Position numbers and translations under genes: made by a program
Assembly (NCBI GenBank): GCA_021513715.1
Contig: CP084167.1
Location: 1 to 64,000, forward strand
Length of the DNA stretch: 64,000 nucleotides
Source: Candidatus Heimdallarchaeum endolithica
Lineage (GTDB): Archaea > Asgardarchaeota > Heimdallarchaeia > Heimdallarchaeales > Heimdallarchaeaceae
Direction of reading: 5' to 3'
In this document: positions 1 through 30,392 of the stretch, in pieces
Layout of the letters: every line of letters begins with the position of its first letter
Position numbering within the stretch: position 1 is the stretch's first letter
The notes under the pieces: generated by a model
Told to the model about the DNA's origin: nothing
The model's database searches: none
What the model saw: only the letters and a program-made list of their open reading frames with translations

Positions 1-63
1 TAAACCGTATGTTTGGGCGTACAAATGTACGCCCATCCCCATAAGAATTTTTCGATTATATTT
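1..63 (+). repeat. attL-like direct repeat (may extend upstream of the window)
   Basis: TAAACCGTATGTTTGGGCGTACAAATGTACGCCCATCCCCATAAGAATTTTTCGATTATATTT matches 30330-30392 except C32 vs A30361; contains palindrome TGGGCGTACA-AA-TGTACGCCCA (14-35). Confidence 0.9.
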
Positions 64-75
64 TTTTAACATAAA

Positions 76-91
76 ATCCGACAAGTCGGAT
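76..91. promoter_or_regulatory. Palindromic operator/origin-like site ATCCGAC-AA-GTCGGAT
   Basis: Perfect 7-bp inverted repeat upstream of the first ORF; the half-site ATCCGAC also occurs at 30314-30320. Confidence 0.5.
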
Positions 92-119
92 CTAAAAAAA
101 TACAGGGAGGGATGAATAA

Positions 120-1697
120 GTGTCCATTGATTCTTCACCTAGACCATTCTACAACACTTCTGAGTCAGATAAGAATATTTTAAAAGAAAATCTGACAACT
201 TTCCTGACATATCAGCTTCCTAAGAAAAGACGTTCTGTGATTGAGAAGTGTGTAGATGTTATTCTCGCTTTATATAGTCGGCAAAACTTTGAGTGGCATG
301 CAGCTGGTATAGCTTCATATTATGGTAAGGATCGCAGGCACTATATTGACCACATAAATTTACTTGTTTCACTAGGTGTTGTTAGTAAAAAACAGAGAAT
401 TGACGGTTTTGTGCCTATTATTTTAAATCACAATGTCGTGAAACAGCTTAAAAAAATCGAACGGGGTATGGGTTCATATTCTAATACTAAACTTTCCCGC
501 CGTAAAATCAATAATAAGTTGTCGGGAAAAGCTTCCAATGTTCGTTCTCATCGTATTATGGCAACTTATTCCCATAGCCTTTCTTCCAAGCAATTTTCTT
601 ATTTAGCGAAAAGATATGGTATTGTCAATGGTCGAGTAAAATCCGACATTGTTTTTGAAGATAAACATTTTGTTCTTCTCTGGTTCAAGGATAAAGTTCA
701 GATACATACTCCTGTATATTATTCTGATTTAGAAGATTTCAGTGTAATAGATGACAGAATTTCTTCCGATCTTGGAAGATTAACTGTATATTTAGAACGA
801 AAGTATCTTATGCCTGGTAGGATGGAATTGAAAGATGCTGTAAAATATGAATATGTTAATGGTAAAATCCCACAAAAAACAATACATGGGGTTAGAAAAG
901 AAGTTGAAGTTCAACACCCTTTTCTTGAATATGTTGCAGACTTAATACAATCACAGAATAGTGGACCAGTAATTTACCCTGATTGGAAAAGTATGCCTAA
1001 ATATCCAGGAATAGAATTTAATGGTGGATACACATATGATGGTTGTGAAAGAGAAGGATATGGTGATCAGCTGTTTGATGAATTGCTACATTTTCCAGAA
1101 ACATTTGAAAGATACTGGAATGAGAATAGAGCAAGTCTTTATGCTACAAATATTCATGTTGATCAAGTAGCAAATAAACTATTAATTAAACTTGAAAATA
1201 TAGAATCAAAAGTAGATAACTACACTGATGTACTTGACGACATACAATACGAATTAGCCGATTTAAAACAACAAAATGATTTTTCTCATGAATACTTACG
1301 TTATCAAAACAGCAGTATAGAAAACAAACTAGATAAAAGCTTAGAAGCAAGTACTGAAATCATAAGAGGTATTAACAGGATAGATAAGAACAACGAACTT
1401 TACACTGAACAAAACAGAGCTGAAATTCAGCTTTTGCATTTTGCAATAGAAGTACAGAAACAGAAATTTTACGAATCACCATTTGAGAAAAAATGTAATG
1501 ATATTTTATCGCTGCTGGAAGATGGGCCAGTTAGCTACAAAGAGATAGCAGAATATCTAAAGCTAACTCAAGCAGCTGTTAGTAGATATCTCAATTATCT
1601 CGAAATTAATAGAAAAATTGAAAGCTACAGAAAGAAAATAGGGAGGGGAAGACCAAAAAGAATTTTCAAAATAAAAAAAGGAGATGATAAAAATTAA
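120..1697 (+). CDS. Protein with N- and C-terminal winged-HTH domains and a central coiled coil; replication initiator/regulator candidate
   Basis: N-terminal HAAGIASYYGKDRRHYIDHINLLVSLGVV; C-terminal SYKEIAEYLKLTQAAVSRYLNYLE...GRGRPKRIF; GTG start with GGAGG upstream. Confidence 0.6.
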   Translation: MSIDSSPRPFYNTSESDKNILKENLTTFLTYQLPKKRRSVIEKCVDVILALYSRQNFEWHAAGIASYYGKDRRHYIDHINLLVSLGVVSKKQRIDGFVPIILNHNVVKQLKKIERGMGSYSNTKLSRRKINNKLSGKASNVRSHRIMATYSHSLSSKQFSYLAKRYGIVNGRVKSDIVFEDKHFVLLWFKDKVQIHTPVYYSDLEDFSVIDDRISSDLGRLTVYLERKYLMPGRMELKDAVKYEYVNGKIPQKTIHGVRKEVEVQHPFLEYVADLIQSQNSGPVIYPDWKSMPKYPGIEFNGGYTYDGCEREGYGDQLFDELLHFPETFERYWNENRASLYATNIHVDQVANKLLIKLENIESKVDNYTDVLDDIQYELADLKQQNDFSHEYLRYQNSSIENKLDKSLEASTEIIRGINRIDKNNELYTEQNRAEIQLLHFAIEVQKQKFYESPFEKKCNDILSLLEDGPVSYKEIAEYLKLTQAAVSRYLNYLEINRKIESYRKKIGRGRPKRIFKIKKGDDKN

Positions 1698-2127
1698 TTT
1701 AGAAGACAGAGTAGCAATTTTAGAAAAGAAATTTGATATTTTATTACGCTATTTAGAACAAATACGACAAGTAACTGATATTTCTATAATATCAGAAGAT
1801 CAGCTACTGTCGCTTATTGAAACTGCAGCTAAACAAGCTTTAACTGAAAAAACAAAAATGAAACAGATAGAAGAAAAAACTAAATCTTCCTCCTCACCTG
1901 CACTTGGAGACAAGATATCTATAAGTGCTTTACAAGAAAAAACTGAATATACTTTTGTTATATCTGAATGGATTACTCGTAAAAAGAATTTACCTGGTAA
2001 TACATTCGCAGCAAAAGTTTCTCAAATTACTGATAAAGCTCTCAAAGTTACTATTAATTCTCAAATAGTTTGGCTTCCTAAATCACAAATAAAGGAAGTA
2101 TATATCTATGAAGGAGGGGAAAAATGA
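1684..2127 (+). CDS. Hypothetical virus-type protein (TDKALKV...VWLPKSQI motif)
   Basis: Overlaps neighbouring ORFs; C-terminal WLPKSQ motif is of a type seen in small phage proteins. Confidence 0.6.
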   Translation: MIKINLEDRVAILEKKFDILLRYLEQIRQVTDISIISEDQLLSLIETAAKQALTEKTKMKQIEEKTKSSSSPALGDKISISALQEKTEYTFVISEWITRKKNLPGNTFAAKVSQITDKALKVTINSQIVWLPKSQIKEVYIYEGGEK

Positions 2128-28730: not shown

Positions 28731-28879
28731 GTACTGAGTCCAAAGAGAAAATTCGCGATCAGCATACACCTAAACAGCATCCTAAAGATGAAAGGTTAGA
28801 ACGAATAGAGAAGCTATTGGAGGAAATTAATGCTAAACTTAATTCTATTGTCGCAAAACCTAGGAGAGCTAAATTATGA
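28727..28879 (+). CDS. 50-aa coiled-coil peptide (not in the ORF track)
   Basis: MSTESKEK...ERLERIEKLLEEINAKL...; ATGA overlaps at both ends. Confidence 0.55.
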   Translation: MSTESKEKIRDQHTPKQHPKDERLERIEKLLEEINAKLNSIVAKPRRAKL

Positions 28880-29382
28880 AGAGAAAGAAATCTGAACGGT
28901 TTTTTGCTCGGACCACTGTAGAATTCAAAACTGAAATTGATAATTTTCTTGCACAAAACCCTGAACATCGCACCTATAGTTCTTTAATTGAAGAAGCTTT
29001 GAAAAGGTATATATCCAATCCTGAAGATGTTTCAACTTCTCTTTCTATTGGCCTTTCAAATCAAGATAAACAAGATATTATCCAAGCGATAAACGAGTCA
29101 GAGGTAAAGATTCTGGAAGCTATTGATAGTCTTGTCTATAAGTTACAACACAAGGTTCGTCAGCAACAATCAGATAATGTTGTTGAAGAAATTCTTAATT
29201 ATTTAGATTTTAAGGAAGCTGTACATTGCCAAACTGATCATGAACTTGCTTCTTTATTCACTACTGATTATCATCGTGAATTTGTTTATGATGTTATTGC
29301 CTATTTAAGAGATGCAGGATATCTTAGATATGTACGTGATAGGATCATATGGAATAAAAAAAAGGTGTTAAATGATGAATGA
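28876..29382 (+). CDS. RHH plus C-terminal winged-helix regulator
   Basis: FFARTTVEFKTEID...YSSLIEEALKRYI; C-terminal VIAYLRDAGYLRY. Confidence 0.65.
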   Translation: MKRKKSERFFARTTVEFKTEIDNFLAQNPEHRTYSSLIEEALKRYISNPEDVSTSLSIGLSNQDKQDIIQAINESEVKILEAIDSLVYKLQHKVRQQQSDNVVEEILNYLDFKEAVHCQTDHELASLFTTDYHREFVYDVIAYLRDAGYLRYVRDRIIWNKKKVLNDE

Positions 29383-30277
29383 TCGAGATTTTAGAGTCAC
29401 TATTCCTTCAGCTCCAATATCTCCTAATATAGATAATTTTCTCAAAATCAAGATTTTACAAGTTAGGCCTATCACTTATCGAGGTTATTATAGGCGTCTC
29501 TTTAGATTTTACAAATATGCTCAAACAGATATTGTTACTGAAGCTATTCTTCAGGACTTTTTAACTTATATATCAAAAAAAGTGGGGAATAGTCAATATA
29601 ATCAATATTTGAATACATTAAAACAATATACTCGTTATCTTGCTGACAGAAGAATTATCGATTCTGCTGAATTTTTGAACAGTTATAAATCAAAGAAAAA
29701 GATTGTTAAACGTGAAAAGCATTATTATCCTGATCATGAGATAGAACAATTTCTAAATGAAGTTTTAACTCGAAAATTCCCACGTTGGCTATATTGGTTT
29801 ATTTGGTTAGGTTTCCAGTTTGGAATTAGGCCTAAGGAAATGAGCTTATTGGAAGTAACTGATATTAACTTAGAAAATTGGACAATAAATTTACGTTCTG
29901 AAATTACTAAAACTAAAGTTCAATCTCTGCTTCCAATTCCAACTATACTTCGACCAAAGATAAAACAACTTTTATCTTGGAGAAAACTTCAAAATACACA
30001 GTCAACAAGATTATTTGTCAACTCATGGGGTGATGCTATTACTGAAGGCAATCTTTCAAACCATAGAGCGGCTTTAAGAGCTATAGATGGGAAATTTACC
30101 TACTATGATATGCGTTATACAGCTGGCTGGAGATGTTATGAACGTTCAGGAGATATTTATTTAGCAGCCAGATTATTGCGTCATTCTGATATTAACCAAA
30201 CTAAGAAATATCTACAAATAGAAAAAGAAAAAGCCTTAGAACAAATGAGGAAAAAATTTGAGGAGGTTTACAAATAA
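29372..30277 (+). CDS. Tyrosine recombinase/integrase
   Basis: GIRPKE (R), TKTK (K), YDMRY (HxxR variant), LRHS (H), TKKY (Y). Confidence 0.93.
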   Translation: MMNDRDFRVTIPSAPISPNIDNFLKIKILQVRPITYRGYYRRLFRFYKYAQTDIVTEAILQDFLTYISKKVGNSQYNQYLNTLKQYTRYLADRRIIDSAEFLNSYKSKKKIVKREKHYYPDHEIEQFLNEVLTRKFPRWLYWFIWLGFQFGIRPKEMSLLEVTDINLENWTINLRSEITKTKVQSLLPIPTILRPKIKQLLSWRKLQNTQSTRLFVNSWGDAITEGNLSNHRAALRAIDGKFTYYDMRYTAGWRCYERSGDIYLAARLLRHSDINQTKKYLQIEKEKALEQMRKKFEEVYK

Positions 30278-30329
30278 TGTACGCCCAAACACTTTCTTTT
30301 GTACGCCAAAAATATCCGACTACTCGTGC

Positions 30330-30392
30330 TAAACCGTATGTTTGGGCGTACAAATGTACGACCATCCCCATAAGAATTTTTCGATTATATTT
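30330..30392 (+). repeat. attR-like direct repeat
   Basis: 62/63 identical to 1-63; preceded by extra TGTACGCC(C)AAA motifs at 30278 and 30300. Confidence 0.9.

Follow-up and report, generated by a model that had tools for sequence, protein, structure and literature searches.

A conserved membrane-protein cassette in HeimV1, an integrated element of Candidatus Heimdallarchaeum endolithica, and its possible role in enveloped release

HeimV1, an element integrated in the genome of the archaeon Candidatus Heimdallarchaeum endolithica, carries a conserved and mobile cassette of seven genes, which we call A, A', B, C, D, E, and the ATPase gene. We analysed it in a window comprising bases 1-64000 of one 3,326,783-base contig (CP084167.1), in which the element occupies positions 1-30392. 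The explanation that we favour, with a modest degree of confidence, is that HeimV1 is released without lysis in membrane-enveloped particles built by this cassette. Four of the seven genes encode type I membrane proteins, the cassette closes with an ATPase of a group known from spindle-shaped viruses, and no recognised capsid class was found in our searches.

The identity of the element is firm. Because all four published junction primers (Wu et al. 2022, PMC8813620) map exactly and in the expected orientation, at 927 (minus), 29323 (plus), 31430 (minus), and 3325205 (plus), and because tRNA-Gly(CCC) closes the contig, filling its final 74 bases, the element at 1-30392 is HeimV1, as an earlier note made from the sequence of the window had suggested it might be; element and circle are thus not new. 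In the published account (PMC8813620) the genome was rotated so that tRNA-Gly(CCC), the HeimV1 site, comes last, and both the integrated and the circular forms were proven by polymerase chain reaction (PCR) and Sanger sequencing, so that the PCR for a circle proposed in the earlier note had already been published in 2022, with the circle found. The same authors described a V-shaped coverage peak in one culture, with high-copy replication of the circle and coverage suggesting that replication is bidirectional; CRISPR spacers that target HeimV1; and, in two further genomes of the Heimdall group, related contigs. They called tail fibres with PhANNs (>90%), tied HeimV1 to tailed phages (Caudovirales), and reported no particle. 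Their HeimV1 matches ours in its 30-kb size, integrase, ParB, and methylase; the membrane cassette, the family of the ATPase, and the missing head were not described there.

The seven-gene cassette and its relatives

The earlier note had pointed to a co-oriented block of about 14 kb (3517-17707) rich in membrane proteins, and this description was confirmed. Five of the nine open reading frames (ORFs) in the block encode membrane proteins, four of them of type I topology, and the same four make up four of the seven cassette genes. Genome-wide, 74 of 2,246 ORFs have this topology; 3517-12087 is the only run of three type I ORFs in the genome, and 3517-14852 is the only six-gene window that holds four. 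Clustering of membrane proteins in the block therefore exceeds chance. Seven of its genes form a conserved core; two ORFs of 227 and 117 amino acids (14713-15396 and 15403-15756, plus strand) lie outside the core and have no homologues in related cassettes.

All seven genes lie on the plus strand. A (3517-5013, 498 amino acids) and A' (5016-6590, 524 amino acids) are paralogous type I membrane proteins, with 25% identity (E 1e-18). The predicted fold of A' has a jelly roll (residues 110-227) resembling carbohydrate-binding modules (CBMs) and set into an alpha/beta stalk; residues 405-495 form an amphipathic 11/3 helix followed by the C-terminal transmembrane (TM) segment. No fold match was found for the stalk, which was searched as part of the whole A' fold. 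B (6619-12087, 1822 amino acids) is a type I membrane adhesin with a signal peptide, a TM anchor, mosaic N-terminal beta domains of CBM and LamG type, and conserved membrane-proximal domains. Its fibre-like coiled coil (about 980-1560), missing from five of six full-length homologues and hence optional, carries an exact in-frame duplication of 378 bp (window 9850-10605, 100% identity). C (12089-13645, 518 amino acids), a candidate for an inner scaffold, has four TM segments arranged as two hairpins, with beta domains and a long helical hairpin or coiled coil between them, and ends in a two-helix unit of 73 amino acids behind a variable linker. This C-terminal hairpin has a tight loop and is the least conserved part of C, and its internal Met is kept only in a copy that is 97% identical. 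D (13663-14133, 156 amino acids) is soluble and present in all complete cassettes, and E (14130-14852, 240 amino acids) is a type I membrane protein with an immunoglobulin-like ectodomain and a basic inner tail. A conserved promoter and a structured 5' leader precede gene A (L001:8360-8530, L026:8215-8405, L027, L032-L035; compare window 3343-3516); the 13-bp closing stem of the leader pairs with the ribosome-binding site, with two-sided changes in 3 of 13 pairs, and the leader had no Rfam match in the window.

Homologues number 11 for A' (at 40-82% identity), 13 for C, and six for the ATPase, and with a threshold of E 1e-10 the A/A' profile matched 32 cluster representatives among 1.84 billion. 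Across mobile elements of Heimdallarchaeia the order A(A')-B-C-D-E-ATPase is kept, in loci L001, L044, L045, L049, and L050 at 20-60% identity; partial cassettes occur in L003, L004, L026, L027, L040, L041, and L043, and a rearranged one in L042. There are one (L043, L044), two, or three (L042) A-family copies per cassette; A proteins and A' proteins group in separate, supported clades, from both of which the L045 pair branches apart. L042, a divergent element on a 28-kb contig, has three A paralogues and an ATPase gene on the opposite strand, and also carries an MCM-like gene, a TFB-like zinc-ribbon gene, and a gene of 327 amino acids whose start is longin/roadblock-like. Where the host has a name, it belongs to Heimdallarchaeaceae, Kariarchaeaceae, or unplaced Heimdallarchaeota; one contig was labelled Bathyarchaeia by its depositor, and its genome was placed in the class of the window. 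A search of 400 genomes of the phylum gave clear A matches in the genome of the window itself and in 4 of the 11 genomes of genus g17, with a weak match in a sixth genome. Searches of non-subscription literature for later work on the HeimV1 capsid or on enveloped Asgard viruses gave no account of such a cassette.

The cassette is mobile DNA. In genus g17 it lies directly behind host genes, with no tRNA, at six or more different places and in up to two or more copies per genome. An ftsZ-type gene comes next after argS in 10 of the 11 g17 genomes, and genome G090 has the cassette between the two; the junction falls within an imperfect palindrome of 30 bp (about 11-8-11) that has kept its left arm and spacer. 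Two further sites show an equally sharp switch from host to element, their host sides sharing a loose consensus, and all three sites are empty in sister genomes. Neighbours of the cassettes include ParB, methylase, and operons of small genes; those downstream are methylases, restriction and defence-like genes, or small-gene operons. The palindrome of the empty argS-ftsZ site resembles a tyrosine-recombinase site, and the g17 elements insert site-specifically between genes (L090, downstream of argS; L102-L105; L114-L118). A search of g17 genomes for a close relative of the HeimV1 integrase found none, with weak tyrosine-recombinase matches only, and the elements yielded no integrase of their own; by analogy with CTX-phi, which uses a host Xer-type recombinase, these elements may do likewise.

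The ATPase and the search for hallmark genes

The block ends, as the earlier note had observed, in a P-loop ATPase (15746-17707, plus strand, 653 amino acids, no TM segment) with a Walker A motif (GxxGSGKS), a Walker B motif, and a nuclease-like, PD-(D/E)xK-like C-terminal tail. Its profile matched His1 gp16 with an HHalign value of 89.6% (E 2e-6), and SSV1 B251 with 38.9%; against ORF8 of the pleolipoviruses (HRPV) it reached 0.7%, which places it farther from ORF8 than from His1 gp16. A homologue matched phrog_5484, the His1 gp16 family, and structural neighbours in the Atlas were mostly viral Zot/AAA clusters (TM-scores 0.63-0.70). The ATPase thus belongs to the His1 gp16/SSV1 B251/Zot-like group and not with terminases or VirB4, and a terminase large subunit was rejected as the packaging ATPase, the only ATPase being of this group. 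In wyrdviruses and NMV3, ATPases of B251/pI-like type are linked to non-lytic extrusion; SSV1 B251 is linked to replication and packaging. In two distant ATPase-nuclease homologues, P0062 and P0063, the EVK motif is intact and C2H2 zinc fingers stand at the N terminus.

Profile searches covered 26 ORFs against PHROGs and the other five against Pfam and PADLOC, and the earlier note's failure to recognise HK97 capsid, portal, terminase, or double-jelly-roll genes was matched by them: there was no head, portal, or terminase match. Nor did profiles, or the predicted folds of A' and C (the block proteins with predicted structures among those tested for capsid folds), match an HK97 capsid, double jelly roll, spindle capsid, or pleolipovirus spike. 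For a VP4-like spike, HHalign values to the HRPV-6 and HRPV-3 spikes were 0.07-0.14%, phrog_2231 did not match, and the fold searches listed none. We found no small multi-TM ORF or phrog_5900 match of the VP3 matrix kind, a comparison in which true orthologues also fail pairwise HHalign. Spindle viruses build their capsid from a two-TM protein of 70-90 amino acids; no free ORF of 50-150 amino acids with two hydrophobic segments occurs in HeimV1, L043, L044, L045, L049, or L050, and the same scan recovered the SSV1 and His1 capsid genes as positive controls. PHROGs 5402 and 11172, used for the spindle capsid, had no match on the element, in a type of search so insensitive that His1 gp21 misses the SSV PHROGs. 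Searches of Pfam, NCBIfam, and PDB profiles gave no match to VirB4, VirD4/TraG, HerA, or a relaxase, and family profiles none to an S8 protease or the VirB4/HerA family. Scans of IMG/VR recovered no relative of the element, although standard tools would miss elements that lack hallmark genes.

Integration, cargo, and flanking DNA

The terminal repeats and integrase reported in the earlier note are real. Within the window the repeat runs from 1 to 66 and from 30330 to 30395 (97% identical). Read across the contig origin it measures 75 bp, attL joining the final 12 bases of the genome, where tRNA-Gly(CCC) has its 5' end, to window 1-63, and attR lying at 30318-30392; the two are 98.7% identical over 75 bp and define a circle of 30,329 bp. 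The repeat spans the first 12 nucleotides of the tRNA and the region upstream of it, rather than the 3' half that integrases usually use. A palindrome inside it (window 15-34) resembles the left-end motif of the g17 elements, and related short direct repeats lie at 30279-30310. The tyrosine integrase (29372-30277, plus strand) matches PF00589 (E 3e-14) and phrog_1 (E 2e-34).

Upstream of the cassette, a 525-amino-acid protein (120-1697, plus strand) with a coiled coil and a C-terminal winged helix-turn-helix is a candidate for replication or regulation; similar genes stand at the same place in L043-L045, and this protein and its analogues score at most 1.2% against HRPV-3 ORF9, the betapleolipovirus Rep, which is no match; this comparison was aimed at a DUF7845 Rep_trans-like initiator, as in Rep-Arvir rolling-circle replicons. 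A five-TM multi-pass membrane protein of 298 amino acids (2333-3229, plus strand), with no counterpart in related cassette loci, is a putative exclusion protein. Downstream lies cargo (18082-23867). An N6/N4 methyltransferase and a neighbour of 253 amino acids (18984-20726) are probably a restriction-modification pair, and have adjacent homologues (51% and 29% identity) at about 440484-441951 of the host chromosome, where the two are on opposite strands to each other. The counter-oriented block of four genes at 20758-23867 is a possible defence module, in which one gene weakly matches TIR/NDT (PADLOC E 6e-5) and the other three are unknown. An early-type operon of small proteins and an 809-amino-acid ParB-family protein (24163-29382, plus strand) follows. 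On the host side, a transposase-linked element of about 1 kb occurs in two copies (30399-31400 and 45654-46658, 89-98%), and 39674-43015 is a tandem duplication with a period of about 1.83 kb.

Release and transfer of HeimV1

We propose that HeimV1 is temperate. Its integration at tRNA-Gly, its excision, and its replication as a circle of 30.3 kb were demonstrated by Wu et al. (PMC8813620); it would then exit without lysis in a membrane-bound particle made by the cassette. A and A' would stand on the particle surface, their jelly-roll heads binding glycans, and would be the likeliest to bring about membrane merger, by way of the stalk and membrane-proximal amphipathic helix. B, judging by its mosaic CBM/LamG domains, would be a variable, long-reach adhesin that sets host range, and topology suggests that C, D, and the basic tail of E might form an inner scaffold. 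The ATPase may bind and pump or recruit circular DNA into the bud, its nuclease-like tail may cut or resolve DNA, and entry would be by membrane merger, as in pleolipoviruses. A membrane-bound particle is the simplest model because no shell protein was found, four exported proteins are anchored, an inner scaffold is predicted, and the motor family is one linked to non-lytic release. As far as its genes tell, HeimV1 may work like a pleolipovirus or a pR1SE-type vesicle element with a spindle-virus motor. Of the earlier note's membrane-budding virus of undescribed architecture, the want of a known capsid class, the membrane module, and the ATPase type have held; virions and budding are what we infer. 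Several points weigh against enveloped release: HeimV1 has no particle, proteome, or virome record, the IMG/VR scans included; no small matrix protein of the VP3 kind was found by ORF scan or profile; A' matched no fusogen fold in the fold searches; the B251 family has no settled role and may serve replication; and ParB, integrase, and defence cargo suit a plasmid or integrative element equally. The wider proposal, a family of capsid-less, enveloped, budding Heimdallarchaeia viruses with A/A' as a new class of fusion spike and a spindle-type ATPase-nuclease as loader, is tentative and rather doubtful.

Pleolipoviridae and Thalassapleoviridae share with HeimV1 a collinear block of type I spikes of about 500-570 amino acids, membrane proteins, and an NTPase, together with an integrase, and AvPV1 and His2 each have two spike-like genes, as with A and A'; HeimV1 differs in giving no VP4/VP5 spike match by profile or fold and no match to a VP3-like matrix gene, in its ATPase, in its 30-kb genome, and in its extra 1,800-amino-acid adhesin and four-TM protein. 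Like wyrdviruses, Halspiviridae (His1), and Fuselloviridae (SSV1), it closes a morphogenetic block containing an adhesin with a TM-less B251/pI-like ATPase; unlike them, it has no 70-90-amino-acid two-TM capsid gene, its ATPase has the nuclease-like tail, and its surface proteins are unrelated. The pR1SE/apHPV plasmid vesicles resemble it in being capsid-less and integrating, with a core of membrane or surface proteins and an ATPase, and with defence cargo, whereas apHPVs are haloarchaeal and have, in their core ORF6-25, an S8 protease and a VirB4/HerA-like ATPase. We assign HeimV1 to no named virus or vesicle-plasmid family.

The same genes would also suit an element that depends on cell contact or a vesicle plasmid. 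HeimV1 could be a non-viral integrative element passed by cell contact with no free particle: B would tether the recipient, A/A' would form a bridge or fuse membranes locally, C, D, and E would provide a conduit, and the ATPase-nuclease would pump double-stranded DNA. The ParB, integrase, and cargo, the several copies at different sites in g17 genomes, the lack of IMG/VR relatives, and the precedent of integrated elements bearing fusexins, which also have a type I surface protein and a proposed transfer by fusion, are all consistent with this. HeimV1 is smaller than the fusexin elements and gave no fusexin match. However, fusexin elements and pR1SE-like plasmids carry the VirB4, VirD4/TraG, HerA, or relaxase genes that profile searches did not detect in HeimV1, its closest ATPase matches are viral, and its circle replicates at high copy in one culture (PMC8813620); we regard contact transfer as the main rival, though an unlikely one. 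A spindle virus akin to wyrdviruses or His1, its two-helix capsid too diverged to detect or cut from the C-terminal hairpin of C, would explain the ATPase and agrees with the two-helix end of C and the insensitivity of the capsid searches. Cleavage of such a unit from a C precursor is possible, but the start of the hairpin is not conserved, it scores 0.8% against SSV1 VP1/VP3 where His1 gp21 scores 24%, and the controlled scan found no free capsid ORF in HeimV1 or five related loci, so that this origin appears improbable. A virus of the usual tailed or icosahedral kind, or a satellite of such a virus, would accommodate the PhANNs call, the PHROG tail and tape-measure matches on A' 373-495 (best E 1e-7), and the single jelly roll of A'. 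Those matches, however, fall on the amphipathic helix beside the TM anchor, B is exported and anchored with an optional coiled coil, the 26 ORFs scanned against PHROGs gave no head, portal, or terminase match, and the jelly roll, part of an exported membrane protein, is ranked among CBMs. A soluble tail fibre and tape measure were rejected on these grounds, both candidates being type I membrane proteins; we consider this origin very improbable, and the published tailed-phage-like reading (PMC8813620) poorly supported and in need of correction.

All Asgard viruses described so far are tailed, icosahedral, spindle-shaped, or filamentous. Recent surveys do not explain circular elements that lack a capsid, and one from 2026 assigned nine such Asgard elements to no group. 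Few Asgard elements have been seen to excise and replicate in an enrichment culture; HeimV1 is among them, and its mode of spread is therefore testable. Budding in an envelope would make it the first virus of this kind from the nearest kin of eukaryotes, whose cells have ESCRT machinery, and would make A/A' candidates for an unknown fusion protein; spread by contact would make it a machine for DNA transfer that lacks VirB4 and has not been described before. In both cases the seven-gene cassette marks a family overlooked by virus-finding tools.

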